Assembly: GCA_965248445.1 (NCBI GenBank)
Contig: CBDFJG010000001.1
Location: 407,979 to 471,978 of the forward strand
DNA from: Planctomycetota bacterium
GTDB lineage: Bacteria > Planctomycetota > JAJSAM01 > JAJVHW01
DNA: 64,000 bases
Reading direction: 5' to 3'
Within the stretch, counting starts at the first letter, position 1; every line of letters starts with the position of its first letter. Positions 31,660-47,232 of this stretch are shown here, piece after piece. The notes beneath the pieces are model-generated. The model searched no databases. It was not told the DNA's origin and was given only the letters and a program-made list of their open reading frames with translations. Position numbers and translations under genes: made by a program.

Positions 31660-31697
31660 CTAGCCCTCACGCCGTCCGTCGGACGGCAGCTAGCCCT
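31660..31697. terminator. nested palindrome between convergent genes (gctag...gccgtc-cgtcg-gacggc...ctagc)
   Basis: Inner 6-bp stem and outer 5-bp stem sit between the end of the micro-ORF and the topA stop. Confidence 0.35.
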
Positions 31698-34344
31698 TCT
31701 TCGCGCTCTTCTTCGTGCTCTTCGTGGCGGTCTTCTTCGCCGCCTTCTTGCGCGTTGTCTTCTTGCGGGTCGTCTTCTTGGTGCCCTTGCGTCCGCCACC
31801 CGAGGCGACGCGCTTCTCGATGAGGTCGACGGCCTCCTCGACGGTCAACGCCGCGGGGTCCGCGTAGTCCCTCGGCAGCGATGCGTTGATCTCGCCGTCG
31901 GTGACGTAAGGACCGTACCGGCCCTTCAGGAGTCGGATGTCGGCGCCACCTCGCGCTTCGACCTTCTCGAACGTCTTGATCGGTTCGACCGTCCGCCGAG
32001 TGCGCTTCTCTTTCGCGAACAGCTCGAGCGCTCGAGGCAGTCCGACCGTCAGCACGCCGTCCGTCGCTTCGAGGCTGCGGTACTCCTTCTCGCGCTTCAC
32101 GAAGGGGCCGTAGCGCCCGACACCGGCCTCGATCACGCGGCCCTCGGCATCCACGCCCAACGGCCGCGGCAGCGAAAGCAGTTCCAGCGCGACGTCGAGT
32201 GTGACGGAGTCCGGCGCCATGCCCTTGAGCAACGAGACCATCTTGGGCTTCTCTTCGGACTCGTCCTTTGTGCCGAGCTGGACATACGGTCCGAAGCGCC
32301 CGTTCTTCACGAAGACCGGCTTGCCGTTCTCCGGGTGCTCGCCGATGGGCGTGTCGCCCTTGCGCACCGTCTCGAGCATCTCGATCGCCTTGTCGAGCGA
32401 GAGCTCGTCGGGCGGCGTCTTTTCGGGAACGCGCGCGGTGTCATCACCGCGTGAGATGAACGGACCGTACCGCCCGACACGAATCGCGACCGGCGTGCCG
32501 TCCGCGTCGACCCCGAGGGGGATCGTGCAGACCGTGCGCGGATCGATCTCCTCCGCCTTCGTGTCGAGCGTGTTGCGGAGTCCGCGCTCGCCACGATAGA
32601 AGTCGTTCAGGTAGGCCAGCGTCTGTTCCTCGCCCCGCGCGATCGCGTCCAGGCGATCTTCCATGCGCGCAGTGAAGTCGAGATCGATGAGCGCGGTCAG
32701 GTGCTCGCGCATCAGGCGGACGACGGCGAACGCCGTGAACGTCGGGACCAGGGCGTTGCCCTTCTTGAACGTGTACTCGCGCCGCTGGATCGTGTCGATG
32801 ATCGACGCGTAGGTGCTCGGACGGCCGATGCCCGACTCCTCGAGCAGCTTGACGAGCGTGGCCTCGGTGAGGCGGGCCGGCGGCGACGTCGTGTGGGACT
32901 CGGACTCGAGCCCGCCGAGTGTCAGCGGGTCGCCCTCCGCGAGCGCCGGGAGCAGGACGTCCTTGTCGGCCAGCGCGGCCTCGGGGTCATCGGATCCCTC
33001 GACGTATGCCCGCAGGAAGCCCGGGCGGTCGATCACCGTGCCGCCTGCGTGGAACACGGCGAGCTTGCCGTTCGCACTGCCGCCGACGCGAAGAACCATG
33101 CGCCGACCGACGGCGTCCCGCATCTGGCACGCCATCGTGCGTTTCCAGATGAGCTCGTAGAGGCGCGCCTCGTCATCGCCGAGCTTCGCACGCACGTCGC
33201 TGACCGTGCGAACGTGCGAGCCGGCCGGGCGGATGGCCTCGTGGGCCTCCTGCGCGTTCTTGACCTTGTTCTTGTACTGGCGCGGGTTCGGCGGCAGTTC
33301 GTCCTCGCCGTAGGTCTTCGCGATCGCCTGGCGGGTCATCCGGATCGCGTCGCCGGAGAGCGCGACCGAGTCCGTTCGCATGTAGGTGATGTAGCCGTTC
33401 TCGTACAGCTTCTGCGCCGCACGCATCGTTCGGCGAGCGTCGAAGCGCAGCTTGCGGTTGCCCTCCTGCTGCAGCGTCGAGGTCGTGAACGGCGCGGCAG
33501 GCCGGCGGACGTAGGGCTTTTCCTGTGCGTCGGTCACGGAGAACGACGCGGAGCCGAGCGCGTCGGCGAGACCGCGTGCGTCGTCCCCGCCGAGCAGGGC
33601 TACCTTCGCGTTCTTCAGCTTGCCCGTGTCGGCGTCGAAGTCCTTCCCCGTCGCGATGCGCGCGCCGTCGAGTTCGATCAGGCGAGCCTGGAATGCCGCG
33701 CCGTCCTTCGTCTTGAAACTGGCGAGCAGATCCCAGTAAGTCGCTTCGTGGAAACGCATGCGCGCCTGCTCGCGCTCGACGATCACTCGGGTGGCGACGC
33801 TCTGCACGCGGCCGGCGGACAAGCGCGGCGCGATCTTGCGCCAGAGGATCGGCGAGACCTCGTAGCCGTACAGGCGGTCGATGATGCGCCGTGTCTCCTG
33901 CGCCTCGACGAGGTTCTTGTCGATCTCGCGGGTCTCGCCGACGGCCCTCTCGATGGCCTGGCGGGTGATCTCGTGGAACACCATGCGGTGGACCGGGACC
34001 TTGGGAGCGAGCAGCTGCACGATGTGCCAGCTGATCGCCTCGCCCTCGCGGTCCTCATCGGTCGCGAGGTAGATCGAGTCGACCGTTTTCGCCAGTTTCC
34101 GGAGCGCCGCGATGCGGTCCTTCTTGTCTGGCTGAATGACGTAGAGCGGCTTGAAATCGTCGTCGACGTTCACGCCGAGCCTGGCCCACTTCTCCTTCTT
34201 GTACTTCGCCGGTATCTGCGCAGCGTTGCCGGGCAGGTCCCGCACGTGACCCACGGTCGCTTCCACGATGTAGTCGTCGCCCAGGAAACGGCGCAGGGTG
34301 CGCGCCTTGGTCGGCGACTCGACGATGACGAGGTGCTTGGCCAT
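31690..34344 (-). CDS. topA: DNA topoisomerase I
   Basis: Toprim and catalytic domains, C-terminal GRYGP repeats, and a lysine-rich tail. ATG at 34344. Confidence 0.9.
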   Translation of the reverse strand: MAKHLVIVESPTKARTLRRFLGDDYIVEATVGHVRDLPGNAAQIPAKYKKEKWARLGVNVDDDFKPLYVIQPDKKDRIAALRKLAKTVDSIYLATDEDREGEAISWHIVQLLAPKVPVHRMVFHEITRQAIERAVGETREIDKNLVEAQETRRIIDRLYGYEVSPILWRKIAPRLSAGRVQSVATRVIVEREQARMRFHEATYWDLLASFKTKDGAAFQARLIELDGARIATGKDFDADTGKLKNAKVALLGGDDARGLADALGSASFSVTDAQEKPYVRRPAAPFTTSTLQQEGNRKLRFDARRTMRAAQKLYENGYITYMRTDSVALSGDAIRMTRQAIAKTYGEDELPPNPRQYKNKVKNAQEAHEAIRPAGSHVRTVSDVRAKLGDDEARLYELIWKRTMACQMRDAVGRRMVLRVGGSANGKLAVFHAGGTVIDRPGFLRAYVEGSDDPEAALADKDVLLPALAEGDPLTLGGLESESHTTSPPARLTEATLVKLLEESGIGRPSTYASIIDTIQRREYTFKKGNALVPTFTAFAVVRLMREHLTALIDLDFTARMEDRLDAIARGEEQTLAYLNDFYRGERGLRNTLDTKAEEIDPRTVCTIPLGVDADGTPVAIRVGRYGPFISRGDDTARVPEKTPPDELSLDKAIEMLETVRKGDTPIGEHPENGKPVFVKNGRFGPYVQLGTKDESEEKPKMVSLLKGMAPDSVTLDVALELLSLPRPLGVDAEGRVIEAGVGRYGPFVKREKEYRSLEATDGVLTVGLPRALELFAKEKRTRRTVEPIKTFEKVEARGGADIRLLKGRYGPYVTDGEINASLPRDYADPAALTVEEAVDLIEKRVASGGGRKGTKKTTRKKTTRKKAAKKTATKSTKKSAKKG

Positions 34345-34515
34345 CTGTGGTGCGGGATTCTCCGGTTCGGCGGGCGTTCGTGGACTCGCGGCGCACGCCT
34401 CCATGGGTGGCGCGAGCGGAAAGGGTTACCCGAGATTCGCGGGTCGGACCATGATCTTCCCGGGCGGCAACACCGCTCGCCCCGCGTGCTCCGTAGGAGC
34501 AGAGGAGTCGAGAAA

Positions 34516-34752
34516 GTGGCAGTTGACGAGTTTCTCCTCGGACTTCTGGCCTGCCCCGAGTCACGGGCGCCGCTCGTGCTGGTCGAGGACGGCGAGGCGA
34601 CATGGCTAGTCTCGACCGACGCTGCCACGCGGCGGCGGTACGCCGTGCGCGACGGCATCCCGATCCTGCTGATCGACGAGTCCGAGCAACTGGACGAAGA
34701 GACCTGGCGCGCCCAAGTGGCGGCCGGTCGCGCAGCCTCAGGCGCAGCGTAG
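34516..34752 (+). CDS. Trm112/UPF0434 family small protein
   Basis: GTG start with an AGGAG RBS. LLACP...RDGIPILLIDE motif. Confidence 0.6.
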   Translation: MAVDEFLLGLLACPESRAPLVLVEDGEATWLVSTDAATRRRYAVRDGIPILLIDESEQLDEETWRAQVAAGRAASGAA

Positions 34753-34761
34753 GGAGAGATC

Positions 34762-35433
34762 GTGCAGGCCTATAAGGGTGAGTTCATCGAGTTCATGGTG
34801 CGTGCCGGGGTCCTTCTCTTCGGGGACTTCGTCACGAAGAGTGGCCGGCGGACCCCGTACTTCGTCAACACGGGCAAGTACCGCACCGGCGAGCAGCTTC
34901 GGGCGCTCGGCGGTTACTACGCCGAGTCGATGATCGAGCACTTCGGTGACGGCTTCGACGTCCTGTTCGGGCCCGCCTACAAGGGCATCCCGCTCGTGAC
35001 CGCCGCTGCGCTGGCCTTGGCGGATCGCGGCCGCGACGTGGCGTACTGCTTCGATCGCAAGGAGCGCAAGGCCCACGGAGAGGGTGGCGTGATCGTCGGC
35101 CACCAGCCCGCGGACGGCGACCGCGTGCTGATCGTCGAGGACGTCACGACGGCAGGCACGTCGATCCGCGACACGGTCCCCAAGCTCCGCGCCGCCGCGG
35201 ACATCTCGCTCGCGGGACTCATCATCTCCGTGGACCGCCGGGAGCGCGGCCCCACCGGCCGCGGGGCTCTCGAGCAACTGGCCGACGAGTTCGACATGCG
35301 CTGCCACGCCATCGTGACCATCCATGAGGTCATCGAGCACCTGCACGGCCGAGAAGTCGACGGCACGGTCCACATCGACGACGAGGCTCGTGAGCGGATC
35401 GCGGGCTACCTCTCCGAGTACGGCGTCGACTGA
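34762..35433 (+). CDS. pyrE: orotate phosphoribosyltransferase
   Basis: GTG start. PRPP-binding motif VLIVEDVTTAGTS. Confidence 0.85.
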   Translation: MQAYKGEFIEFMVRAGVLLFGDFVTKSGRRTPYFVNTGKYRTGEQLRALGGYYAESMIEHFGDGFDVLFGPAYKGIPLVTAAALALADRGRDVAYCFDRKERKAHGEGGVIVGHQPADGDRVLIVEDVTTAGTSIRDTVPKLRAAADISLAGLIISVDRRERGPTGRGALEQLADEFDMRCHAIVTIHEVIEHLHGREVDGTVHIDDEARERIAGYLSEYGVD

Positions 35434-35446
35434 CGCCGCGAAGCGT

Positions 35447-38047
35447 TCATCGCCGCAGATGGTCGAGGATCTCTCGGACGGCCTCGCGGAGCGTCAGGGG
35501 CTGCGCCCCACGGCGGCGGTTCTCCGCAGCGATCCGGAACGCGATGCGCCACTGCTCGAAGAGCACCCGATACGCCTCGACCAGGCCGTGCCTCGGGTCG
35601 TAGATGTGCGCCGCCTCGGAGGTGAGGCCGTTGAGTTCGAGGATGCGGAACCCCTCTCCGCGGCGAAACACGTCGAGATCGGTCGCCCGAACGTCGTACC
35701 GGCCGAAGTAGAAGCCGCCGAACGCGCGGCTGATGCGGTCGAACGCGTCCTCGAGCGCCGGAGTGCGGAACGCCTCCCCGTCCAGGAACACAGCGCCCAG
35801 GGAATGCGTGCCGATCTCCGCGATCGGCGCCTCCGCACCCACCGCGGGCACGGTGCGCAGTCGCGAGGCGTTCGTGCGGAGGTACACCGGCGCCATCCGC
35901 ACGGCACGGGCGTCGTCGAGAATCAGCCGTTCCAGCGTGCGGACGCCGTCGCCCGTGAGCGTCGGGAGCCGCTTCTCCGCGATCGAGAACACGCACCCGC
36001 GCTCCTCGCCGGGAATGCGGTAGTAGAAGACACCGAACTCGTGCCCATCGGCGTACTCCTGCACGATCGTGTCCCGCGTCGCGGCGGCGAGGTACGTACC
36101 GAGTTGCGCGTCGTCCCGGACGATGCTGACGCCCTCGCCGCGCTCTCCGACATCCGGTTTCAACACGACGGGGTACGAGAGTTCGTGGTCACGCAGAAAC
36201 GCGTTCGCCGCGGCGACGCGCTCAGCTGCGCCGAGGTTCGCGCCGACCGTCCGCAGCGCGGGCACCGGAGCCCCACTGGCGCGGAGGGCCTCCAGAATCT
36301 CGCTCTTCGACTCGCCGACGAGACCACCGCCTCGGATCGCCGGGTTCACGGCCGTCACGAGTGAGAGGCTGCGGTGCCGCAGCGCCAGCCACACGACGTA
36401 CGCCGTGACGGGGGCGTAGAAGACCCAGCGTGGCCAGAACTCGAAGTGACGAACGCGCCCGAACGAGCCAACGAGGAGACGCCGACCACGGTGGCTCAGC
36501 AGCTTCAGGCCGACGCGCTCGACGAAGAAGATCGCGGCGATGAGGATCAGCGCGGCGGGCAGCCCCCACCTGCCCAGTTGCTCGAGAGAGTCGTACGCTC
36601 GGGTGCCGACCAACGCGGAGAATCCCACGATGATGGGTGTCCAGATCGCGCAGGCGAGTGCGAAGTAGAGAGTGCACACCGCCAGGTTCGTGCGCAGGAC
36701 GCCGGCCGCGACGTAGGTCGGCAGGCGTAATCCGGGGACGAAGCGAGAGACGAAGATCGCACGAGCGCTGCGCGCGCCGAACCACGCAGCGGCCGCGTCG
36801 ACACGGTCCCGTGGGATGAACCAGCGCAGCGGAGCGCGAGAGAGAACCGGACGACCCAGCCAGCGTCCAGCGACGTACAGCGCGAGGTCGCTCAGGAAGT
36901 TGCCCAGCCAGCACGCGAGGATCGCTGCGACGAAGTCCATCCGACCCTGTGCGACCAGCAGGCCGGCACCGATGCAGGTCAGATCCTCCGAGACGAACGC
37001 CGACGCGATCAGGAGTCCCATCAGAACGAGCAGAGCGAGGCCCGAGAGCGGCGCGACGTCGTCGATGGCGAACGGCGTGGCCGCCGCCGCGACGCGCTCC
37101 GGAGCGGCCCCGGCGCGGCCAGACACCCGCCCGAGTTCGACCCGATCGAGGAAGCCGCCGACGACATCTGCGACCTCGTCCGTGCGGCTGAAGAGGACGA
37201 GATGCCCCTCCGGCAGCCATTGCAGTTCGCTCTGCGCAACGATCCGGTGGTGCTCGATTGCGACCTCCGGAGGGACGAGCGCATCCTCCCGTCCGTGCAC
37301 GATGAGCATCGGGCCGGCATGGCGCTCGAGCATGGCGCGCAGCGGGCGCTGATCGGTGTCGAAGAAGTTCCGCGCATACGGCACGCCGAACGCCGCGTCG
37401 TCGAACGCGCCGAAGTGCGGAAACCCCCAGTCGATCGCGCGAATCATCGCGAGCTGCATGCCGTGCACCACGTGGTTCATGCGGTACGAGCCGAACAGCT
37501 CGAGCTCTTGGACGCCGATAGCAGAGATCATGGAGACGGAACGGATTCGGTCGGGCGCCCGGTCCGCCGCGCGGACCGCCGCGCCGCCCGCCATGCTGAA
37601 CGCCACGAGGTGGGCACTCTCGCGTCCCAGTTCGTCGAGCAGCTGCTGGACGTACAGGGAGTGGGCGTCGGTCGAGTAGTCCGGCACGTGCCGTTCGGAG
37701 TGCATGAAGCCGGGTAGGTCCGGCACGAAGACGTCGTATCGCTCGCCGAGACGAGCGCCCATCGCGCCGAAGTCCTGGATGCTGCCCGGGCTGCCGTGGA
37801 GCAGCACCACGGCCGGAGCATCCGGCCGTCCACCGGGCGGGAAGCGCCGATAGACGACGCGGACGGACTGCGCAGTGAGTTCACCGCCGTCCACTGCACG
37901 CAGATGCGCCACTTGCTGACCCGGAAGAAGAGGCCTCTTGTCGCTCCGGGCCGCCGCCACGAGGTGCGAGACCACCAGAACGAGCACGTAGGCGATCAAG
38001 AGACGGACTGGCCAGCGTCTACGCGGCCGGGCGATCTCCGCGTCCAT
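35447..38047 (-). CDS. tripartite fusion: alpha/beta hydrolase + DedA/SNARE-associated membrane domain + ATP-grasp ligase
   Basis: 866 aa. N-terminal hydrolase with an FSMAGG nucleophile. Central DedA-like polytopic segment. C-terminal ATP-grasp (YPVVLKPDVGERGEGVSIV ... EFGVFYY). Confidence 0.65.
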   Translation of the reverse strand: MDAEIARPRRRWPVRLLIAYVLVLVVSHLVAAARSDKRPLLPGQQVAHLRAVDGGELTAQSVRVVYRRFPPGGRPDAPAVVLLHGSPGSIQDFGAMGARLGERYDVFVPDLPGFMHSERHVPDYSTDAHSLYVQQLLDELGRESAHLVAFSMAGGAAVRAADRAPDRIRSVSMISAIGVQELELFGSYRMNHVVHGMQLAMIRAIDWGFPHFGAFDDAAFGVPYARNFFDTDQRPLRAMLERHAGPMLIVHGREDALVPPEVAIEHHRIVAQSELQWLPEGHLVLFSRTDEVADVVGGFLDRVELGRVSGRAGAAPERVAAAATPFAIDDVAPLSGLALLVLMGLLIASAFVSEDLTCIGAGLLVAQGRMDFVAAILACWLGNFLSDLALYVAGRWLGRPVLSRAPLRWFIPRDRVDAAAAWFGARSARAIFVSRFVPGLRLPTYVAAGVLRTNLAVCTLYFALACAIWTPIIVGFSALVGTRAYDSLEQLGRWGLPAALILIAAIFFVERVGLKLLSHRGRRLLVGSFGRVRHFEFWPRWVFYAPVTAYVVWLALRHRSLSLVTAVNPAIRGGGLVGESKSEILEALRASGAPVPALRTVGANLGAAERVAAANAFLRDHELSYPVVLKPDVGERGEGVSIVRDDAQLGTYLAAATRDTIVQEYADGHEFGVFYYRIPGEERGCVFSIAEKRLPTLTGDGVRTLERLILDDARAVRMAPVYLRTNASRLRTVPAVGAEAPIAEIGTHSLGAVFLDGEAFRTPALEDAFDRISRAFGGFYFGRYDVRATDLDVFRRGEGFRILELNGLTSEAAHIYDPRHGLVEAYRVLFEQWRIAFRIAAENRRRGAQPLTLREAVREILDHLRR

Positions 38048-38059
38048 GAAGGCTTCCCC

Positions 38060-38794
38060 TCACCGGGGCGCCGCGCGCACAACGCGACGCGGGAGGCTCA
38101 GTACGGGGCCGGCGGGGGTCCGGCACGGCGGGCCCGGTGTGTGGCGCAGCTCCACCGTGACCGGCCCGACGTCGATGCGCGTCATGCTGCGCGTTGCGGC
38201 GTCCTCGCGATGCATGCACGGCGAGTACGGTCCGCGACCACCGGCGTGGCCGCGGTGGAACGCCTCCACGTGGTCGGGGGTTCGTTCAGCGAGTTCCCGG
38301 AACGCGGCGCTTCGGCGGACACGCACATCGCTCTGGCTGAACGCTGAGGAGATGAGTGGGACACGCCGGTCGGCGCGGCGGTCCTCGAGCCGTGACTGCC
38401 CGTCCCACTCGACGACGAGCGCTTGCGCGGCGGGAGTGAGCGCCGCGAGCACGAACGGGCGGTATGCGCTCAGGTCGGCCGCGGAGAGTCGTGTTGAGAC
38501 CGCCTCCACCGAAGACGCGTCCGCCAGTGACGATACGAGCAGCCCGCGACTCGTGAACTCATGCTCCGCGTGATTGGGCCGGCCGTATCCGTTCAGGATG
38601 CACACCGTCAGTCCCAGCTCGTTCGTGGCAATCCACGTCCCGCCGAAGTCCGCGTCCTGCGGGGCCAGAATGCGGACACCGCGAGACTCGTGAACAGAAG
38701 GCCCGATCTCCGGGCCGCGCGTCCGCCGTTCATCCCGGTTGAAGAAGAGGTGGTACCCCGCGTCACGTGCGGGCAGCCAGCTCACGGTGCACAT
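38060..38794 (-). CDS. NRDE-family (DUF833/TANGO2-like) protein
   Basis: MCTVSW N-terminus and an FFNRDE motif. Confidence 0.65.
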   Translation of the reverse strand: MCTVSWLPARDAGYHLFFNRDERRTRGPEIGPSVHESRGVRILAPQDADFGGTWIATNELGLTVCILNGYGRPNHAEHEFTSRGLLVSSLADASSVEAVSTRLSAADLSAYRPFVLAALTPAAQALVVEWDGQSRLEDRRADRRVPLISSAFSQSDVRVRRSAAFRELAERTPDHVEAFHRGHAGGRGPYSPCMHREDAATRSMTRIDVGPVTVELRHTPGPPCRTPAGPVLSLPRRVVRAAPR

Positions 38795-39318
38795 GTGCGG
38801 CTCTCCTGCCAGCTGTGCAGCGTGGATGGCGCAACGCCGAATTCCCGCCCCGGATCGTGGCCGGCGACGCGCAGGATCATGGCGACGACTGCGAAGTGAT
38901 GGACTGTGTGGCTGATCAGTGACTGGAGTTCCCGATCGAGCGAAGACGTCGTCCAGGGAACCTCGTCAGAGCCGGTTTGGGCGGCGTCCAGGCGGACCAC
39001 GAGCGGCCGGGGCACACCAGCGCCACGCATCCCGCGAAGCCGCGACTTCACGTCCCGGAGCCGCTGGATCACCGCGCTGCAGCTCCGTTCCAGGCGCACG
39101 TCGCGCTCTCGCGCGTCGTAGTTCACGCGGCCGTCCACCAGCCCGGCGAAGAGGCACTCGTAGAAGTCGATGCAGTGGCGCACATGGCTGCCGACGCCGC
39201 TCGACGCCAGGCGCGGCTCCGAACGCGCGTATGTCGCGTCATCGAGTCTCTCGATAACGCGAATGCCCTCGTCGAGTATCCGAACGTTGCTGCGGATGAG
39301 CGCTTCTCGCTGACTCAT
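38782..39318 (-). CDS. DinB-like/four-helix-bundle metalloprotein family (putative)
   Basis: His-containing motifs HCIDFYE and HTVHHF. Assignment is tentative. Confidence 0.35.
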   Translation of the reverse strand: MSQREALIRSNVRILDEGIRVIERLDDATYARSEPRLASSGVGSHVRHCIDFYECLFAGLVDGRVNYDARERDVRLERSCSAVIQRLRDVKSRLRGMRGAGVPRPLVVRLDAAQTGSDEVPWTTSSLDRELQSLISHTVHHFAVVAMILRVAGHDPGREFGVAPSTLHSWQESRTCAP

Positions 39319-39358
39319 GACGTCTCCGGATGATGAACGACCACGCGTCTCGACATGC

Positions 39359-40120
39359 CTAACCGAGGACCGGTGTGAATTGTGCCTGGACCGACCGATG
39401 CGCCGCGCGCGCCAGCGCCTTGCGGTCCCCGTCCACCACGGGGTTGGCGCCGAACGCCACTCTCGCGCGCACGGAGGGTATCTGGAGCAGCCCGTACAGG
39501 TGCCGCCCGAACGTCATGTCGCCCCACCAGCAAACCGACGTACTCGGTGGATGGGCGGCGCTACCGGTCTGGTACGAGAGGCTCGCGCACCACACCGGGC
39601 GTCCCGTCCTCGCTGGAACCTCGAAGATCGACGGCTTGAAGTGCAGCACCTCCGAACCCGCGGTGCTCGTGCCCTCCGGGAAGACCACGACGCCCACGTC
39701 CTCGGCCAGCGTTCGTTCGACCTCCGCGATCGCGCGCCGCAGATCCGCCTTCCGTTCCCGGTCGACGAAGAGGGTGCCGGACGTCCGCGCCAAGAGCCCG
39801 ATGACAGGCCACCGCGCGACATCCGACTTCGCAACGAACACGCAGTCCGCCAGCGTCAGCAGCACGACGATGTCGAGGTACGACAAGTGGTTGCAGACGA
39901 GGAAGAACGGAGCTTGCGGTGCGTGTCCGACGGTCTCGGTGCGCACGCCGAGCAACCACGCGACACCGCGCGCCCAACTGCGCTTGACCCAGATCCGCGC
40001 CCGCGTACCGAGGCGGGGCGCGACCAGAGCCAGTACGCGCGCAGCCACCAGCGCGACGAACCACACGAACGTGTGAATGCAGAGCGCAGCAGCTCGGACC
40101 CCAGCCCTCAGGTGTCCCAT
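39359..40120 (-). CDS. olsA: lysophospholipid/lyso-ornithine-lipid O-acyltransferase (PlsC family)
   Basis: NHLSYLD (HX4D) and FPEGTS motifs. Directly downstream of an OlsB-like gene. Confidence 0.6.
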   Translation of the reverse strand: MGHLRAGVRAAALCIHTFVWFVALVAARVLALVAPRLGTRARIWVKRSWARGVAWLLGVRTETVGHAPQAPFFLVCNHLSYLDIVVLLTLADCVFVAKSDVARWPVIGLLARTSGTLFVDRERKADLRRAIAEVERTLAEDVGVVVFPEGTSTAGSEVLHFKPSIFEVPARTGRPVWCASLSYQTGSAAHPPSTSVCWWGDMTFGRHLYGLLQIPSVRARVAFGANPVVDGDRKALARAAHRSVQAQFTPVLG

Positions 40121-40151
40121 GTCGTGTCGATCCGTGCTCTCGGCGAGTCGC

Positions 40152-40943
40152 TCACCGCGTGAAGGTCCGGAACGTCCGCTCGTCCATCGCGGCGACGTCG
40201 AGAATCGTGAGGAAGTCGATCGTGCCGAAGAAGCGGTCGAGAGCCGGCTCGCTGGCCACCTTGGCTCCATAGCGCAGGTAGGTGCTGAACAGCGTAGGGA
40301 TGGGTGCGTCCTCGCGACTCGGCACGTAGTCGTCCACGACACACGCGTAGCTCGGCAGCACGGGCACGAGCCAATCCGGGTGCGCGTGTCCCATGCGCCG
40401 CAGCTGATCGTGGAAGCGGAGGCCCTCGAGCGGGTCCTGGCTCGTCAGTGACGAGCATCCGAAGAAGTAGCGCTTCCTGTTCCACAGCACATATGAGGCG
40501 AGCCCCTTCCAGAGCAGGAACAGGACGGTGCGGTTGCGATGCTCCTTCGCGATGCACGCGCGACCGAGCTCGATCGACTGCGCGACGACTTCCGCAGGGA
40601 GGCCCGAGAGATCGAACTCGGTTTCCGCGTAGAAACCGTTCGCACGCTCGGCAGACTCGGCCACCTGCATCCGGTAGGTGCCGATGGTGCTGTCGCTCTC
40701 GTCGTCGATCACCATGACGTGCTCGCATTGTGCGTCGAAGCGGTCCGAGTCCCTGCCGGTGTCGAACGACTCTTCTAGTCCCTCCCCCATCTCGAGGTTG
40801 AACACCTCGAAGCGCATGCGAAACACGGCATCGAGGTCGGCCTCCGACCGCGCGAAGCGGACCCGGTACCGGCCGCGAACGTGATCGAGGTCCGGCGTCA
40901 GAGCTGTGAGTGCCGACCGACGGGCGTGGACGGTGTCGGACAT
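40152..40943 (-). CDS. olsB: ornithine N-acyltransferase-like (GNAT-fold putative-hemolysin family)
   Basis: OlsB family architecture of about 260 aa. Paired with a PlsC-family gene. Confidence 0.55.
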   Translation of the reverse strand: MSDTVHARRSALTALTPDLDHVRGRYRVRFARSEADLDAVFRMRFEVFNLEMGEGLEESFDTGRDSDRFDAQCEHVMVIDDESDSTIGTYRMQVAESAERANGFYAETEFDLSGLPAEVVAQSIELGRACIAKEHRNRTVLFLLWKGLASYVLWNRKRYFFGCSSLTSQDPLEGLRFHDQLRRMGHAHPDWLVPVLPSYACVVDDYVPSREDAPIPTLFSTYLRYGAKVASEPALDRFFGTIDFLTILDVAAMDERTFRTFTR

Positions 40944-40952
40944 GACGCTCTC

Positions 40953-41708
40953 CTACTCGAGTCTCCTATACGTCCCCGGATCGGCGTAGAGCACGAGCTG
41001 ATCGCCCGCTCGACGCAGCGTGCCGGTGACTTCGAGTGGCTCGGCCACCATGTCGAGCACCTCGCTGTTCACGGTGCGGCCCTCGGACGAGACGAGAAGG
41101 TAGTACGTCGCGATCCCCGATGCGTCGCGGGCCAGCAGGACCGGCGGGATCCCACCGCTGATGCAGCGGGTCGCACACGCGCGGTGCGGCTTCAGATTTC
41201 CGGGCTTCATCACTCCGAGGAAGCACTTGCTGTCGACGATCTCACCTCGGATCGTCTGCCGTCCCAGATCCTCAATCACGGACGAAGGCGGCGGCCCCGC
41301 CCCGGCGACCTGCTCGATCGTCCCGTCCGCGATCTCGATCATGGTGCGGTGATCGCGGTAGACCAGCGTGCCATCGAGGCGAACGCGCTGTCCGTCCAGT
41401 CCACTGACGGCATCGCCGGCGCCGTGTTTCCCGAACACGACGAGCAGGTAGCGCGACGTGCCCGCTCCGGTACCCGGACGCTCGACGATCAGCGTCGGAT
41501 AGGGCTTCGCCTCGATCCAGCCCTCGAACGAACGCACCGTGCCGAACTCGAAGTTCGATTGCGCGAACGGTCTCTGACTCGCGGAGAACACGGCCGCAAG
41601 TGCGACGCACGCGACGAGCACGATCAGGAGCCGGCCGCGGACGAACCGCGCCAGCGATGCGGGCGCGTCGGGCTTGTACCCGACGTAGAAGTCGCCGTCG
41701 TCAGCCAT
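40953..41708 (-). CDS. membrane-anchored hypothetical protein
   Basis: N-terminal TM helix. No recognisable domain. Confidence 0.4.
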   Translation of the reverse strand: MADDGDFYVGYKPDAPASLARFVRGRLLIVLVACVALAAVFSASQRPFAQSNFEFGTVRSFEGWIEAKPYPTLIVERPGTGAGTSRYLLVVFGKHGAGDAVSGLDGQRVRLDGTLVYRDHRTMIEIADGTIEQVAGAGPPPSSVIEDLGRQTIRGEIVDSKCFLGVMKPGNLKPHRACATRCISGGIPPVLLARDASGIATYYLLVSSEGRTVNSEVLDMVAEPLEVTGTLRRAGDQLVLYADPGTYRRLE

Positions 41709-42768
41709 CGTTCACCACCTCGGACGCGCCGGGGATCGCCGCCGGCGTAACGTGAGTGCCGGCGGCCAGCGGCTGCGGGTGGACGAGGACTCGCCCGTCC
41801 TCGACGCGCACGCGGAACGTCGGCACCTTCTCCGTGAACGGCTCGGGCGATCGCCCGCAGTCCGGCTTGTACTCGTAGCCGTGCCACGGGCAGACGACGC
41901 ACCCATTGACGATTCGCCCTTCGCCCAGCGGACCGTTCTGGTGCTGGCACGCGTTCGAGAGAGCGGAGACCTTCCCGTCGTACCGGAAGACCGCGACGCG
42001 ATCTCCGGAGAGGGCGAACGTGCGCCCGCGACCCTCTCTGAGATCGCCGACCGCGCAGAGGTCCACGAACCCTTCGTCCCGTGTTGCCGGGCGCGCCGGT
42101 TCCGCGTCCCGGCGCCGCTCCCGCAGGCCCGCAACGAGGTGCAACCCGAGCACCCAGGCCATGCCGACACCGAGGGCGCCGGCCAGGATCGGACTCGTCT
42201 CGGCCTGCAACACGCCGAGAACCACGTGCATGACGATCAGTCCGTACGCGAGATACACGAGCATGTGCAGCGCCTTCCAGAGCGGCGCCGTCAGGTTCGC
42301 GAGCCAGAAGTCATGGCTTGTGGCCGCCATGAGAAACAGGATGCCGAGAGCGATCAGACCGAGCGGTTGGAACGGGAACTGCGCGATGCTCTCGAACCGC
42401 GTGTTGGAGACCAGCACACTGACGAGGGGGTTCACATCGCCCAGTGCGTGGAACTGTACGAGCGAGAACCCGCCGTGCAGCAGCGCCACGAAGAACATCG
42501 AGACGCCCAGGTGCCTGCGGTTGTAGAGCAGCGGCAGGAAGCGGCGATCGAGGCGGCACAGCGGACCGATCGACAGGACCACGTGGAGCATCAAGAACGC
42601 GCAGGTGCCGAGCGCCCGGATGAGCATGGTCTCGGCCGTCGCCTCCGGGTGGATCGCGAACCCCGCCCCCACGAAGATGGCGAGATACCCGACCACGCCG
42701 ACCGCGATGACCTTGTCGTAGATCTTCTTCTGGCGATTCCAGCCGACAGCCTTGTAGGTGAGACTCAT
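41701..42768 (-). CDS. polytopic membrane protein with C-terminal Rieske [2Fe-2S] domain
   Basis: ATG at 42768 with an ATGA overlap onto the upstream gene. About 6 TM helices. Rieske ligands CQHQNGPLGEG...CPWHGYEY. Confidence 0.6.
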   Translation of the reverse strand: MSLTYKAVGWNRQKKIYDKVIAVGVVGYLAIFVGAGFAIHPEATAETMLIRALGTCAFLMLHVVLSIGPLCRLDRRFLPLLYNRRHLGVSMFFVALLHGGFSLVQFHALGDVNPLVSVLVSNTRFESIAQFPFQPLGLIALGILFLMAATSHDFWLANLTAPLWKALHMLVYLAYGLIVMHVVLGVLQAETSPILAGALGVGMAWVLGLHLVAGLRERRRDAEPARPATRDEGFVDLCAVGDLREGRGRTFALSGDRVAVFRYDGKVSALSNACQHQNGPLGEGRIVNGCVVCPWHGYEYKPDCGRSPEPFTEKVPTFRVRVEDGRVLVHPQPLAAGTHVTPAAIPGASEVVNDG

Positions 42769-43241
42769 CGCGCTGCTCCGACGTCGGCGCGTCCGACGAT
42801 CTCCTGGTGCGCCAGGCTGTAGAGCACAAGGTCGCCCGTGTCCCGCCGGCCTTCCGGGACATCGAAGCGGTGCAAGCCCGAGCCGCCGACCGTGCCCAGC
42901 AGATACGCGTCCGCCGGAATCCCATCGCCCTCGACTCCCGACAGCGACCAATAGAGCAGCAGGTCCGGCCGGCGCAGATCGTCGCCCACCTCGAGTTCGA
43001 TCGAGTTGCCGCCCGGCGGCGGGCCGCCGGCCAGGCGACGCGTCACGATCGGCAGCTCGCCCCACAGCGTCGCCGACTCCCATAGGAGGTGACCGGACTG
43101 CACCACGGACTGTCCCGGCGCAGGGCCGTCGGTGCTGGGAATCTCCGTGCGCGCGAGCAGCCCGGCGGCGAAGCCCACCGGTAGCAACAGAGCAAGCGCG
43201 GCCAGGACACGGAGGTGGCGCGAGCGGAGGCGGCTGATCAC
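42765..43241 (-). CDS. secreted hypothetical protein
   Basis: GTG start with a GGAGAG RBS. Signal peptide. Confidence 0.4.
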   Translation of the reverse strand: MISRLRSRHLRVLAALALLLPVGFAAGLLARTEIPSTDGPAPGQSVVQSGHLLWESATLWGELPIVTRRLAGGPPPGGNSIELEVGDDLRRPDLLLYWSLSGVEGDGIPADAYLLGTVGGSGLHRFDVPEGRRDTGDLVLYSLAHQEIVGRADVGAAR

Positions 43242-43501
43242 GTGAGGCTCTCCGCTGCATCTCGGTGCGCGGATCGCTCCGTCGGCGGAGCCGCGTCCCG
43301 GCGGGCCCAGCGCAGCAGGAGGTACGGCCACAGGGCCGCGGCGCCCGGCAGGATCAACAGTTTGAATCCCCAGGTGCTGCCGGCAGCAACCGGATCGATC
43401 CGGCGCGCGCCAACGCTCGCAAACGCGATTGCGAACAGCAGTCCGATGCCCGCATAGAGCAGCAGCGCCAGGACGATCGCCTCCGCTGTCCCGTGAGACA
43501 T
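43238..43501 (-). CDS. small two-TM membrane protein
   Basis: GGAGGGGAAGG RBS. 87 aa. Confidence 0.45.
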   Translation of the reverse strand: MSHGTAEAIVLALLLYAGIGLLFAIAFASVGARRIDPVAAGSTWGFKLLILPGAAALWPYLLLRWARRDAAPPTERSAHRDAAESLT

Positions 43502-43677
43502 TCAGCCTTCCCCTCCGTGCGCGACCTCGAATGGCCCAACGCGGTAGGCTCTCCGAACCGAGACCCACGTCTCCCCATTCCGTCCCTGCACGATTTTGCC
43601 GTACCTCGTCTCCGGGCCGTGCAGAGGAATATGAGGAGCTACCGGAGGGTTCGACAGGCTCGACAGCAGGGGGAAGC

Positions 43678-45306
43678 ATGGGGAACGTGTCCGTTGCGCG
43701 CTGGGATGAACTGGAGGACCGCGCTCCGGCGCATGCTCTGGTCGAGGGTGTCGACCTCGTGGTCGTCCGCTACGACGACAGTGTGTCCGTTTTCTACGGA
43801 CGCTGTCTGCACCGCGGGGCACTGCTCTCCGACGGCTTCGTGCGCGGCCAGGATCTGATCTGCGGCGTCCACGACTGGGACTACCGGCTGGACAGCGGGG
43901 TCAGCGCGTACAAGAACGACGAGGTGCTCCCTCGCTTCCGCTCCTGGCGCGAGGACGGCAACGTCCTGGTGGATGACACCGAGATCGCCGCGTGGGCGCT
44001 CGAGCATCCGCAGCCGTTCAACCGGGCGGCGTTCCAGGGCGCGTATCAGGACATCCACGGCACTCCGGACGAGCCCCGCACCAAGCTGATCCAGAAGCTC
44101 GCAGCGAAGGGCATCGAGGGCGTCGGGCACCACGGCCCGGTGGCGGCCATGGGAGTACCGGCACCGAACCTCCCTCGGTGGGACGACATCCAGTTCGTGA
44201 CAGCGCAGCTCTGGAAGGTCCCCCAGCTCGATGAGGTGCCGGTCGCCAGCGAGGTGGTGATCGGGCCGGGGGCAAAGAAGCCACTGCGGCTCGATATCCC
44301 GCTCTTCGTATCGGACATGAGCTTCGGCGCGCTGTCCGAGGAGGCGAAGGTGTCGCTCGCGATGGGCGCGGAGCTCGCCGGGACCGGGATCTGTTCCGGC
44401 GAGGGCGGGATGCTGCCCGAGGAGCAGGCCGAGAACTCGCGCTACTTCTACGAGCTCGCATCCGCCCGCTTCGGCTTCTCCATGGACAAGCTGCGACGCG
44501 TGCAAGCGTTCCACTTCAAGGGCGGTCAGGGTGCGAAGACCGGCACCGGAGGCCACCTGCCGGGGTCGAAGGTGAAGGGCAAGATCGCGGAGGTGCGCCA
44601 GCTCCCCGAGGGGCAACAGGCGGTCTCGCCGGCTCGGTTCCCCGAGTGGGACTCTCTCGAACCGTTCAAGGAGTTCTCCCACGCCGTGCGCGAGGAGACC
44701 GGGGGGATCCCGATCGGGTTCAAGCTCTCGGCCCAGCACGTGGAGAAGGACATCGACGCCGCCCTCGAGATCGGCGTCGACTACATCATCCTGGACGGCC
44801 GCGGCGGCGGCACCGGTGCGGCACCGCTCATCTTCCGCAACAACATCTCCGTGCCGACCATCCCGGCGCTGGCGCGCGCGCGGCGCCACCTTGATCGCTG
44901 TGGCGCGGACCAGGTGTCGCTCGTCATCACCGGCGGCCTGCGCGTACCGGACGACTTCGCGAAGGCGTTGGCGCTCGGCGCCGACGCGGTCGCGGTGTCG
45001 AACGCCGCCATGCAGGCGATCGGCTGCATCGCGATGCGCGCGTGCCACACCAACAACTGCCCTGTCGGGATCGCGACACAGAAGAAGCACCTGCGCGAGC
45101 GCCTCCCGGTGAACGAAGCAGCCAAGCGGCTGCACCGGTTCTTCCACGCATCGACGCACCTCATGCAGGTGCTGGCGCGAGCCTGCGGGCACACGCGCCT
45201 CGATCAGTTCAACGTCGACGACCTGACGACCTGGAAGCGCGACATGGCGCACCTCGCGGGCATCCGCTACGCGGGCGTGGGGTCGGTACAGGGAGAGGAC
45301 CGGTGA
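43678..45306 (+). CDS. Rieske [2Fe-2S] domain fused to glutamate-synthase-type FMN domain (GltS central-domain-like)
   Basis: Rieske ligands CLHRG...CGVHDWDY. GltB FMN-domain motifs (GEGGMLPEE, FKGGQGAKTGTGGHLPG, ILDGRGGGTGAAP). Confidence 0.7.
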   Translation: MGNVSVARWDELEDRAPAHALVEGVDLVVVRYDDSVSVFYGRCLHRGALLSDGFVRGQDLICGVHDWDYRLDSGVSAYKNDEVLPRFRSWREDGNVLVDDTEIAAWALEHPQPFNRAAFQGAYQDIHGTPDEPRTKLIQKLAAKGIEGVGHHGPVAAMGVPAPNLPRWDDIQFVTAQLWKVPQLDEVPVASEVVIGPGAKKPLRLDIPLFVSDMSFGALSEEAKVSLAMGAELAGTGICSGEGGMLPEEQAENSRYFYELASARFGFSMDKLRRVQAFHFKGGQGAKTGTGGHLPGSKVKGKIAEVRQLPEGQQAVSPARFPEWDSLEPFKEFSHAVREETGGIPIGFKLSAQHVEKDIDAALEIGVDYIILDGRGGGTGAAPLIFRNNISVPTIPALARARRHLDRCGADQVSLVITGGLRVPDDFAKALALGADAVAVSNAAMQAIGCIAMRACHTNNCPVGIATQKKHLRERLPVNEAAKRLHRFFHASTHLMQVLARACGHTRLDQFNVDDLTTWKRDMAHLAGIRYAGVGSVQGEDR

Positions 45307-47232
45307 CCGCACCGCAGGCCGGGAGCACCGAGAGCCGCACCGTCTGGCACCGCGCCCTCGCGCCCGAAGAGTTGCCGGAGGGGCGTGTCACCTCCGTCAC
45401 CTGCGGACTGAAGACGCTCTGCGTGACGCACTTCGGTGGCGAGTACGCGGCGCTCGACAACCGTTGCCCTCACCAGGGTGGCCCGCTCGGCGAAGGCTCC
45501 ATCGAGAAAGGACTGTTGCGCTGCCCCTGGCACGGCTGGGACTACCACCCGACCACGGGCAAGGCGCCCGGCTTCGACGACGGTGTGGAGACGTTCCCGA
45601 TACAGGTTCGCGAGGACGGCGTCTACGTGGGCCTCGAAGAGGAGCAGCCGCACGTCACCACGGTCTCCGACGTGATGGTCGAGACGATGGTGAACTGGGG
45701 TGTCACGTCGGTGTTCGGCATCGTGGGACACAGCAACCTCGGGCTCTCGGACGCCGTCCGCGTCCAGGCCGAGGGCGGCGGACTGCAGTACTTCGGGGTT
45801 CGTCACGAGGGCGCCGCGTCGTTCGCCGTGTCCGCCTACGGCAAGCTCACCGGGCGGCCTGCCGCATGCCTTGCAATCGCGGGTCCCGGCGCGACGAACC
45901 TGCTCACGGGACTGTGGGACGCGAACGTGGACCGCGCACCGGCGCTGGCACTGACCGGTCAGGTCGACACCCAGGTCCTCGGCCCCGGCGCGTTCCAGGA
46001 AGTGGACCTCGTCGCGGCATTCGGCCGTGTAGCGCAGTGGGCACAACCGGTGCTGCACACGAGCAGACATTCGGAACTCGTGAATCTCGCGTGCAAGAGC
46101 GCGATCCTGAATCGCGGGGTGTCGCACCTGATCTTCCCCGACGAGGTGCAGGTGCTGCCCGCGCCCGCCGGAGCGAAGGCGGGCGGACCGGCTGGGCGGC
46201 TGCCCGCTCGCGAGATCGCACCGGCTGCGGAGGCACTTGATGAGGCTCTCGCGCTGCTGCGCCGGTCCAAGCGCCCGCTGATCATCGTCGGCCACGGCGC
46301 GCGCTTCCACATGGACGGCGTGATCGCGTTGGCGGAGCGACTGGGCGCCGCGGTCGCCACCACGTTCAAGGGAAAGGGCCTGATCGCAGACGACCACGAG
46401 CTCGCGTGTGGTGTGCTCGGGCGCAGCGGGACCCCCATCGCCAGACACGGGGATCACACCCAAGAGGCCGACCATCCAGGTCGACTTCGACGCGATGACG
46501 CTGGGCAAGTTCCACGCCGTGGACGTGCCCGTGCTGGGCGAGATCGGCGTCACGACAGGGCTTCTGAGAGAGCGCCTGACTGACGGCGACCTCTGGGTCG
46601 ACCAGCGGTCGGATGTGGCGGCCCGTTGGACGATCTGGCGCGCAGAGAAGACCCGTCGCGAACAGGACGACTCCGGCAGCGGCATCAACTCGGCGGCCAT
46701 CTTCGCTGCGCTGAACAGGACGCTGCCCGCGGACGCGATCATCGCCGTCGACGTCGGCAACAACACCTACTCGTTCGGACGCTACTTCGAGCCGCGGCAA
46801 CAGGCCGTGCTGATGTCGGGTTACCTGGGTTCGATCGGATTTGCCCTGCCGGCGGCGATGGGTGCATGGGCCGCGACGCAGGAAGACGATCCACGCTTCA
46901 AGGGCCGCACCGTGGTCTCCATCTCGGGCGATGGCGGGTTCGGCCAGTACATGGTCGAACTGCTCACAGCGGTGAAGTACGGCATGAACATCACACACGT
47001 CCTGCTGAACAACAGCGAACTGGGGAAGATCAGCAAGGAGCAGCGCGCCGGCAAGTGGCACGTCTGGCAGACATCACTGCACAACCCCGACTTCGCGGAG
47101 TACGCCCGCATCTGCGGCGCACACGGGGCGCGCGTGACCGAGAAGAGCGACCTGGATGCCGCGCTCTCGGCTGCCCTGGCGTACGACGGCCCGGCGCTGG
47201 TCGAGATCGTCTCCGACGCGCTGCTCGTGTAG
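45303..47232 (+). pseudogene. Rieske [2Fe-2S] domain fused to thiamine-pyrophosphate enzyme (ALS/POX-like); reading frame switches 0 to +1 near 46440-46470 with about 40 expected residues missing
   Basis: GTGA overlap with the upstream stop. Rieske CPHQGGPLGEG...CPWHGWDY. TPP N-terminal and central domains end at GVLGRSGTPIA; the TPP-binding C-terminal domain (GDGGFGQYM) continues in the +1 frame. Confidence 0.5.

Follow-up and report, generated by a model that had tools for sequence, protein, structure and literature searches.

Within the 64,000-nt window analyzed here, a stretch of a Planctomycetota bacterium genome (assembly GCA_965248445.1, contig CBDFJG010000001.1, positions 407,979 to 471,978), a single gene encodes an 866-aa protein in which an alpha/beta-hydrolase, a DedA membrane domain, and an ATP-grasp domain follow one another in one chain. 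The gene occupies positions 35447..38047 of the window on the minus strand, stop codon included, and starts with ATG; it is defined by its open reading frame (ORF) and translation, by full-length homologs, and by an AlphaFold2 model. We are highly confident that its product is a real membrane enzyme that is conserved and belongs with an ornithine-lipid operon. By conserved linkage, the fusion belongs to an ornithine-lipid (olsB/olsA) gene cluster.

The Fusion Gene and Its Homologs

The search of 5.8 billion proteins with the fusion protein returned 1288 matches. Nearly all of the best 120 of these matches are 850–930 aa long and share 46–55% identity with the query over 92–100% of its length, the nearest homologs being 55% identical. 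In their sources, the homologs are annotated solely as "alpha/beta fold hydrolase" or "pimeloyl-ACP methyl ester carboxylesterase / DedA." The conservation of residues was judged on two alignments, of 24 and of 120 homologs, and all three domains are conserved in both of them. A search for the same fusion in other genomes, which the original prediction had named as a check, found relatives in at least 540 genomes when one genome per GTDB species was scanned. The carriers include Acidobacteriota (Blastocatellia, Pyrinomonadaceae, Thermoanaerobaculia), Gemmatimonadota, and Planctomycetota, and further KSB1, Calditrichota, Opitutales, Desulfobacterales, and Rhodothermia; a cultured carrier is the planctomycete Engelhardtia mirabilis Pla133, which has the full five-gene arrangement described below (locus L046). 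The fusion architecture is not rare and is common in metagenomes.

The single 866-aa ORF joining three domains, as originally claimed, is thus a genuine and conserved fusion. The suspicion raised along with that claim, that a sequencing or assembly frameshift had joined three separate genes, has a negligible probability and was excluded, since approximately 120 independent full-length homologs from many samples and phyla have the same uninterrupted order and length, and since a confident single-chain AlphaFold2 model (pLDDT, for predicted local distance difference test, 89.8; predicted template modeling score, pTM, 0.72) spans all three domains. The ATG is located 12 nt past the stop codon of the upstream gene and is preceded by a purine-rich stretch, GAGGGGAAG. 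The G+C content around the gene is approximately 66–70%, and long opposite-strand ORFs within it (e.g., 35324-36364, plus strand) were dismissed as by-products of high G+C; such antisense ORFs cluster across loci only because the real gene is conserved.

Domain Composition

Hidden Markov models, suggested originally as a test of the three domains, gave a divided result: Abhydrolase_1 and VTT score above their Pfam cut-offs, whereas the ATP-grasp families stay below theirs, and that domain was confirmed by profile and fold instead.

The alpha/beta-hydrolase domain (residues 44-305; 37133..37918, minus strand), predicted to be periplasmic, is recognized by Pfam, by an invariant triad, and by a fold match. 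Abhydrolase_1 (PF00561) covers residues 78-176 with an E-value of 4.5e-23 and 82.6 bits against a cut-off of 25.8. The triad consists of S151 (37595-37597), D255 (37283-37285), and H282 (37202-37204), all on the minus strand and all invariant in the 120 homologs. The FSMAGG motif that had suggested a serine hydrolase corresponds to residues 150-155, and the nucleophile elbow around S151 reads AFSMAGG here and GFSMGGG in most homologs. The oxyanion motif HGSPG occupies residues 84-88, with G85 invariant and H84 kept in at least 90% of the 120 sequences, and the domain also carries an invariant block, YARNFxDxDQRPLR. In the AlphaFold2 model the fold matches esterases and lipases with target-normalized TM scores of 0.6–0.73, among them PlaF (PDB 6i8w; 24% identity over approximately 319 aligned columns). 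Pfam score, triad, and fold all agree with a serine hydrolase, and the predicted activity is that of a generic esterase/lipase-type alpha/beta-hydrolase.

The DedA/VTT membrane domain (residues 334-516; 36500..37048, minus strand) is delimited by the Pfam VTT domain, by alignment with Escherichia coli YqjA (reference sequence taken from the K-12 genome), and by the secondary structure of the model. VTT (PF09335) matches residues 361-477 (E 1.4e-14; 55.1 bits, cut-off 33.9), and this score, together with the aligned YqjA residues, bears out the DedA/SNARE-associated domain recognized originally. The model contains a re-entrant hairpin (336-366) with E354 and D355, a membrane helix (372-402), helices predicted to be cytoplasmic (407-434), a second hairpin with R435 and R441 in the motif SRFxPGxRxP, and a long helix (455-516) that is read as two membrane helices. 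This layout of two hairpins and three membrane helices agrees with secondary structure and charge distribution, no geometry being taken from the coordinates. The residues E354, D355, R435, and R441 are invariant in the 120 homologs. In the YqjA alignment, D355 corresponds to D51, R435 to R130, and R441 to R136, and the GRWLG motif is common to both proteins; the position of YqjA E39, which is not conserved, is taken by M343, and the invariant acidic E354 stands next to D355. In COG0586 DedA proteins, protons and the anionic group of the lipid are presumed to bind at these acidic and basic positions (PMC10127716). The UptA model of NCBIfam matches residues 341-507 (E 2e-18) with 67 bits against a cut-off of 250, so that by the equivalog cut-off the domain is not a UptA ortholog.

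The C-terminal domain (residues 560-866; 35450..36370, minus strand) is identified as an ATP-grasp ligase, predicted to be cytoplasmic, by a profile, an AlphaFold2 model, and Foldseek. The Pfam families ATP-grasp_3, RimK, CPSase_L_D2, and TTL match residues ~580-673, all of them below cut-off (E ~4e-3), with the best score for ATP-grasp_3 (17.8 bits, cut-off 23.2) and 17.1 bits for RimK (cut-off 21); therefore, searches by profile and by fold were added. In NCBIfam, the ATP-grasp part of cyanophycin synthetase was matched with an E-value of 5e-7. Against solved structures, the family profile for residues 560-866 matched cyanophycin synthetase 2 (7ta5, E 1.7e-6) from the Lys strand to the E-x-N motif, and further cyanophycin synthetase 1 (E 1e-5), followed by Ddl, GshAB, and RimK. 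An AlphaFold2 model of the same residues (pLDDT 88.8, pTM 0.85) found as its best Foldseek match the G domain of CphA1 (7wae; probability 1.00, E 7e-12, TM 0.60), then GshF, CphA2, and dozens of Ddl structures, with 485 PDB matches at E<=0.001.

Of the ATP/Mg-binding residues, K630 (36158-36160), Q663, E804 (35636-35638), and N806 (35630-35632; all minus strand) are invariant, whereas at least 90% of the 120 homologs retain E664; R783 and D785 of the domain are invariant as well. The invariant motifs VVLKPDxGxRGxGV (K630) and ELNG (E804 and N806) have aligned counterparts in 7ta5 and 7wac. By profile, predicted fold, and these invariant ligands, the third domain has the ATP-grasp fold that was claimed for it, with a predicted ligase activity. 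The CphA1 G domain, GshF, CphA2, RimK, and Ddl activate the alpha-carboxylate of an amino acid or of a peptide end by phosphorylation and then couple it to an amino group. Since only approximately 65 residues with a single strand precede the ATP-binding strand of the model, the usual N-terminal subdomain of ATP-grasp seems to be reduced here. Ahead of the domain are juxtamembrane helices (residues 519-557, RGRRLL...RWEFWP...; 36377..36493, minus strand), conserved in both alignments. The RWEFWP helix always accompanies the ATP-grasp domain, and it is found at the N-terminus of the stand-alone ATP-grasp proteins P0147 and P0161.

Membrane Topology

The protein begins with an arginine-rich tail (RPRRRW), predicted to be cytoplasmic, and an N-terminal membrane anchor (helix 12-33), which together make up residues 1-33 (37949..38047, minus strand) and are supported by hydropathy and by a helix of the model. 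In the 120 homologs the flanks of the anchor contain on average 3.65 K+R residues on the N-terminal side vs. 1.88 on the C-terminal side (85 sequences vs. 14), and their net charge is +4.1 and −0.1, respectively. This excess on the N-terminal side suggests that the N-terminus is inside and therefore the hydrolase outside. Likewise, the loops 395-440 and 515-545, with 9 and 7 K/R residues, respectively, should be cytoplasmic. The experimentally supported topology of YqjA runs, from N to C, through periplasmic N-terminal helices, the outer hairpin, a membrane helix, a cytoplasmic region, the inner hairpin, and two membrane helices to a cytoplasmic C-terminus.

Natural variants of the protein point in the same direction. 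Two-domain proteins, which lack the hydrolase, have just 10-16 residues ahead of the SEDL motif; this is too short for a membrane span, so the outer hairpin would have the segment before SEDL as its first arm. The hydrolase of P0149 is joined to ATP-grasp by one hydrophobic segment of ~33 residues in place of DedA, and P0237, which has a similar length and no DedA, probably carries the same replacement. A single segment would put the two enzymes on opposite faces of the membrane, and the ATP-dependent one must be cytoplasmic. The phospholipase PlaF also has an N-terminal membrane anchor, and its catalytic domain was shown to face the periplasm (PMC9132575). Several independent lines of sequence reasoning thus favor a periplasmic hydrolase and a cytoplasmic ATP-grasp domain. 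A topology of the TMEM41B type, with a cytoplasmic hydrolase, both ends cytosolic, and an extra N-terminal membrane helix, was rejected as unlikely because of the charge bias at the anchor, the 10-16 residues before SEDL, and the single-segment variants.

Linkage to Ornithine-Lipid Genes

On the minus strand, the order of transcription is ferric-reductase/Rieske gene, 251-aa protein gene, olsB-like, olsA-like, DinB-like, TANGO2, and the fusion. The fusion was initially placed at the head of this operon-like run but is in fact its last (3') gene, its neighbors lying on the same strand at higher coordinates; the identification of these neighbors as NRDE, DinB-like, and olsBA genes agrees with the Pfam and NCBIfam matches in the window. 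The olsB-like ornithine N-acyltransferase (40152..40943, minus strand) matches Pfam Acetyltransf_5 and NCBIfam OlsB (E 1e-39, below the cut-off), its match to GlsB being merely 4e-5. The olsA-like lyso-ornithine-lipid O-acyltransferase (39359..40120, minus strand) matches Pfam Acyltransferase and NCBIfam OlsA (E 2.6e-41, below the equivalog cut-off); its likely start is the ATG at 40120, while the longest ORF reaches 40342.

The conservation of this arrangement was assessed in 59 informative loci of other genomes, each with more than 3.5 kb of upstream flank. On the same strand upstream of the fusion, olsB was found in 42 of them, olsA in 39, a DinB-like gene in 37, and TANGO2 in 19; in five further loci, olsB is located just downstream. 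When the neighbors were clustered de novo, these four families were the only frequent ones. The order olsB-olsA-DinB-like-TANGO2-fusion recurs in Acidobacteriota, Gemmatimonadota, Planctomycetota, and other phyla. These counts make the association with ornithine-lipid genes far stronger than a single window could indicate.

Directly upstream of the fusion is a gene of the TANGO2/NRDE family (244 aa; 38060..38794, minus strand; Pfam TANGO2, E 2.5e-8). Its product begins with MCTVSW, i.e., with a cysteine at position 2, and carries FNRDE, thus matching Cys2, Asn25, Arg26, and Asp27 of human TANGO2. A Met-Cys-Thr motif (MCTVSW, MCTVTW, MCTCSW, or MCTLSW) is present in all 12 sampled TANGO2 homologs of related loci, either at the N-terminus or behind a probably spurious upstream extension of the ORF. 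The function of human TANGO2 is contested, the proposals being heme trafficking, acyl-CoA binding, or a Cys-dependent N-terminal nucleophile (Cys-Ntn) amide hydrolase; a 2026 crystal structure reads it as the last of these, related to bile-salt hydrolase, acid ceramidase, and NAAA. Given its conserved position between the aminolipid genes and the DedA fusion, TANGO2 may act on an N-acyl-amide lipid.

The DinB-superfamily gene (178 aa; 38782..39318, minus strand) belongs to a family in which DinB_2 was matched in 11 of 12 members (best E 8.6e-10) and in which H48, H137, H140, and H141 are invariant. No close match to this protein was found among solved structures (best 3dka, E 0.026). The DinB-like gene is the most constant neighbor of the DedA-ATP-grasp module, with or without olsBA.

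Two more genes are located upstream of olsB. The first encodes a membrane-anchored, Cys-containing protein of 251 aa (40953..41708, minus strand), a possible upstream member of the run that matches no Pfam or NCBIfam family. Of 80 loci, 13 contain this gene, for the most part upstream of olsB. The second (41701..42768, minus strand) encodes a fusion of a ferric-reductase (MsrQ-like) membrane domain with a Rieske domain (Pfam Ferric_reduct and Rieske); its likely start is Met165 of a long ORF, at 42768, and tBLASTn matches over ~348 aa at 57–69% identity were found in 13 loci. The pair occurs upstream of olsB in approximately 10 of the 59 other loci and could represent a further, lipid-modifying redox pair. 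The ferric-reductase/Rieske protein is also the first of three Rieske fusions clustered at 40953-46583 of the window, the second combining Rieske with a glutamate-synthase flavin mononucleotide domain (43429-45306, plus strand) and the third combining Rieske with domains of thiamine pyrophosphate enzymes (45042-46583, plus strand; the real start is probably later).

On the other side, a convergent phosphoribosyltransferase gene (34762-35433, plus strand) ends 13 nt beyond the stop codon of the fusion, and beyond it lies a gene of topoisomerase I with four C-terminal Toprim_C_rpt repeats (31690-34404, minus strand); both look ordinary. A scan of 34400-44000 for promoters and terminators yielded nothing above shuffled expectation, including no terminator-like hairpin between the fusion and the phosphoribosyltransferase gene, so the limits of the operon are set by gene spacing and synteny only. 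In 15 related loci a small membrane protein of ~139 aa is encoded close to the fusion, in most cases immediately downstream and on the same strand (e.g., L006:6904-7497 and L024:6679-7095); it is absent from the window. From the appearance of its sequence and a weak DoxX_2 match of a 139-aa gene in an unrelated locus (L082), this protein is possibly DoxX-like.

Variant Architectures

A profile of the ATP-grasp module, run against 1.84 billion representatives, gave 3811 matches, of which 1529 have E<=1e-30 (50%-identity clusters). The architectures of the best 150 representatives were classified by domain profiles and Pfam. Approximately 66 of these 150 have the hydrolase-DedA-ATP-grasp architecture, ~51 consist of DedA and ATP-grasp, ~25 contain ATP-grasp alone (some being fragments), and ~8 combine the hydrolase with ATP-grasp, DedA being absent or degenerate. 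The conserved RWEFWP helix precedes ATP-grasp in all architectures. In P0125, P0131, P0132, and P0148, the degenerate DedA domain has lost SEDL and SRFxPGxRxP and retained its hydrophobic helices; transport by the DedA domain thus appears dispensable in lineages where this domain is degenerate or replaced.

In each of the four two-domain loci examined, a DinB-like gene, a TANGO2 gene, or both are directly upstream and olsBA is absent; either family is upstream in three of the four. The order is DinB-like, TANGO2, and the DedA-ATP-grasp gene in L081 and L088, DinB-like and the DedA-ATP-grasp gene in L086, and TANGO2, the DedA-ATP-grasp gene, and a Mur ligase gene in L087. This Mur-ligase-family gene (L087:2380-3711) directly follows the two-domain gene, in this one locus only; cyanophycin synthetase pairs an ATP-grasp domain with a Mur-ligase-like domain. 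The stand-alone ATP-grasp protein P0147 is encoded in an unrelated context, next to an extracytoplasmic function sigma factor. Judging from these architectures and contexts, the constant core of the family appears to be a membrane-tethered ATP-grasp domain, with DedA, DinB-like, and TANGO2 as frequent partners and with the hydrolase and olsBA added in a large subset.

Proposed Function and Alternative Interpretations

We tentatively propose, at slightly less than an even chance, that the fusion is an inner-membrane enzyme performing an ATP-dependent change of an aminolipid headgroup, flipping by its DedA domain, and periplasmic hydrolysis. OlsB and OlsA would build the aminolipid on the cytoplasmic leaflet. 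The ATP-grasp domain, held at the membrane surface, would phosphorylate a carboxylate; the alpha-carboxylate left free in the N-acylated ornithine headgroup, chemically like a peptide C-terminus, is the most plausible one. To this carboxylate the domain would couple an amine (an amino acid, taurine, or ammonia), yielding a headgroup-extended and more cationic lipid. The DedA domain would move this lipid to the periplasmic leaflet, with D355/E354 and R435/R441 as proton and anion sites, and the periplasmic hydrolase would strip the added group or an acyl chain, thereby setting the steady-state level. The DinB-like protein and the Cys-Ntn hydrolase-like TANGO2 protein, both cytoplasmic and encoded just upstream, would probably be accessory enzymes of the same pathway. 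From domains and context we infer which lipid is the substrate, which reaction it undergoes, and in which direction it is transported, as well as the ligase, flippase, and editing activities of the fusion; the retention of the RWEFWP helix even in stand-alone ATP-grasp proteins would favor a membrane-resident substrate. The more ambitious version of the proposal, in which one polypeptide provides a complete cycle for a phosphorus-free aminolipid, from cytoplasmic amine ligation through DedA flipping to periplasmic removal, is rather unlikely.

A number of observations weigh against this proposal. We know of no ATP-grasp enzyme that acts on a membrane lipid, and the solved relatives of the domain act on soluble amino acids or peptides. 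OlsB and OlsA are both below the NCBIfam equivalog cut-offs, and the amino acid of the lipid might not be ornithine. Six of the 59 informative loci have no partner gene nearby, and stand-alone ATP-grasp relatives occur in unrelated contexts. Approximately one-third of the best 150 representatives lack the hydrolase; ~5% have lost or degraded DedA while keeping the hydrolase and ATP-grasp, so that flipping by the DedA domain is not always needed. The topology was derived by reasoning from sequences rather than from model coordinates. The arginine pair of COG0586, kept in the DedA domain of the fusion, is presumed to bind the phosphate of undecaprenyl phosphate (PMC10127716); ornithine lipid has no phosphate.

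The linkage to olsBA suits equally well an inward salvage of aminolipids, in which the periplasmic hydrolase would deacylate ornithine lipid or a phospholipid, DedA would flip the lyso-product or the fatty acid inward, and ATP-grasp would re-ligate it. Such a pathway can be likened to LplT-Aas, a lysophospholipid repair system. For UptA-type DedA proteins, lipid transport is believed to run from the outer leaflet to the inner one, and the hydrolase resembles the lipid-remodeling phospholipase PlaF. However, the enzymes closest to the ATP-grasp domain ligate amino-acid carboxylates with amines rather than fatty acids with lipids, and two-domain forms without the hydrolase are common, so a pathway that starts with the hydrolase cannot be general. 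We consider salvage improbable.

The hydrolase could also be the synthetic part of the protein, O-acylating in the periplasm a lyso-aminolipid flipped by DedA, with a phospholipid as the donor and the ATP-grasp domain in a separate or regulatory role. The precedent is OlsI, an alpha/beta-hydrolase-fold O-acyltransferase that is encoded in an ornithine-lipid operon, replaces OlsA in the third pathway of ornithine-lipid synthesis (OlsH/OlsI), and acted in E. coli cell-free protein extracts. Four loci (L025, L033, L037, and L050) have olsB and no olsA found in the flank, as would be expected of such an enzyme. The fusion loci usually keep a normal olsA, however (39 of 59), the hydrolase of the fusion, in distinction to OlsI, is predicted to be periplasmic, and the invariant ATP-grasp active site would be left without a role; the probability of an OlsI-like function is accordingly small.

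An equally small probability is assigned to a soluble product, a dipeptide or modified ornithine made by ATP-grasp for OlsB or for export, with DedA and the hydrolase handling this product or an unrelated lipid. The soluble substrates of every solved relative are in its favor, as is the location of stand-alone forms away from ols genes. It does not explain why a membrane-interface helix always precedes ATP-grasp and why this domain is usually fused to membrane domains, and the N-terminal domain that usually receives the substrate appears reduced in the model.

Least probable of the functional alternatives is that DedA flips undecaprenyl phosphate and ATP-grasp adds an amino acid to a lipid-linked cell-wall precursor, as the D-aspartate ligase Asl does, the ols adjacency being incidental. 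In its favor, UptA is the best match of the DedA domain, the COG0586-type arginine pair is retained, and a Mur ligase gene adjoins the two-domain gene in one locus. An incidental adjacency is hard to reconcile with the synteny of olsB/olsA across several phyla; moreover, the UptA score is far under its cut-off, and YqjA E39 is not conserved.

Comparison with Known Systems

The original comparison with MprF gains support from the predicted topology at the level of functional logic and not of homology, as no MprF-related Pfam or NCBIfam family is found among the matches of the fusion protein. Like the MprF/LpiA and AcvB/PA0919 systems, and judging by its predicted topology, the fusion would combine a cytoplasmic headgroup enzyme, a membrane translocator, and a periplasmic serine hydrolase of the alpha/beta fold. 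In Agrobacterium, LpiA and AcvB are co-encoded in an operon, interact as proteins, and jointly set the level of the cationic lipid lysyl-phosphatidylglycerol (PMC8131360; PMC13197417), and it is this module that the fusion recalls. In contrast to MprF, the proposed reaction would be ligation by ATP-grasp instead of aminoacyl-tRNA-dependent transfer, a DedA domain would take the place of the MprF flippase as translocator, a single chain would hold all three functions, and the linkage to olsBA makes an aminolipid a more probable substrate than phosphatidylglycerol.

Each of the domains likewise combines familiar and distinctive features. With COG0586 DedA proteins, such as YqjA/YghB of E. coli and UptA of Bacillus subtilis, the fusion shares the VTT score, a predicted hairpin-plus-helix layout, the D51/R130/R136 residues, and GRWLG, whereas it scores below the UptA equivalog cut-off, has YqjA E39 replaced and an invariant E354, and carries enzymes on both sides of the DedA domain. 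Its ATP-grasp domain has the same fold and the same ATP/Mg-binding residues as the cyanophycin synthetase G domain, GshF, CphA2, RimK, and Ddl; it differs from the solved ligases in its low identity (~20%), Pfam scores below cut-off, apparently reduced N-terminal subdomain, and membrane-interface helix, and its substrate is probably membrane-bound. PlaF, a phospholipase A1 of Pseudomonas aeruginosa, resembles the predicted layout of the fusion in having a single N-terminal anchor followed by a periplasm-facing alpha/beta-hydrolase, but it is a stand-alone enzyme acting on glycerophospholipids, whereas the fusion continues into DedA and ATP-grasp and has the YARNFxDxDQRPLR block of its own.

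The type of reaction proposed here, ATP-dependent amidation of the ornithine alpha-carboxylate, is known from cerilipin of Gluconobacter/Gluconacetobacter cerinus, where taurine is transferred to the carboxyl group of ornithine lipid in an ATP-dependent manner and the gene is not known (PMC12971839). The parallel is a lead only, and the loci examined included no family member from Acetobacteraceae.

Novelty and Significance

The original view that this architecture had not been described is supported by full-text searches, ornithine-lipid reviews, the OlsH/OlsI paper, and a survey of DedA subfamilies, in none of which it was found. The link of such a fusion to olsBA is likewise absent from the searched literature, which does not prove its absence elsewhere, and no useful literature was found on the lipids of the carrier phyla. 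The 2023 survey names fusions of DedA with rhodanese, PAP2, and pyridine-nucleotide oxidoreductase domains and never uses the word "hydrolase" (PMC10127716). Each of the three domains comes from a known superfamily; what would be new is a synthase-translocator-hydrolase module that is made of other parts and linked to another class of lipids.

Ornithine lipids occur widely, but the reviews on them list just five modifications; no gene is known for one of these, ATP-dependent taurine transfer, and the words "flip" and "transport" are absent from a 2026 review. With its predicted ligase, its lipid-transporter domain, and its predicted periplasmic hydrolase, the fusion, as a conserved partner in the operon, offers a tangible candidate for a step that this pathway still lacks. 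The substrates of DedA proteins are still debated, and a DedA domain placed between two enzymes and tied to one lipid pathway provides a handle on both substrate and direction. The operon also puts a bacterial TANGO2 homolog, with Cys2 and NRDE kept, beside genes for N-acyl-amino-acid lipids, which bears on the dispute over human TANGO2. If one polypeptide indeed carries out the complete cycle, a DedA domain would for the first time have a defined aminolipid substrate, and the type of enzyme responsible for ATP-dependent amidation of the carboxyl group of ornithine lipid, a long-known reaction that lacks a gene, would be identified. Such a cycle would also imply an undescribed class of headgroup-extended ornithine lipids in Acidobacteriota, Gemmatimonadota, Planctomycetota, and other phyla, and would tie bacterial TANGO2 homologs to the metabolism of N-acyl-amino-acid lipids.

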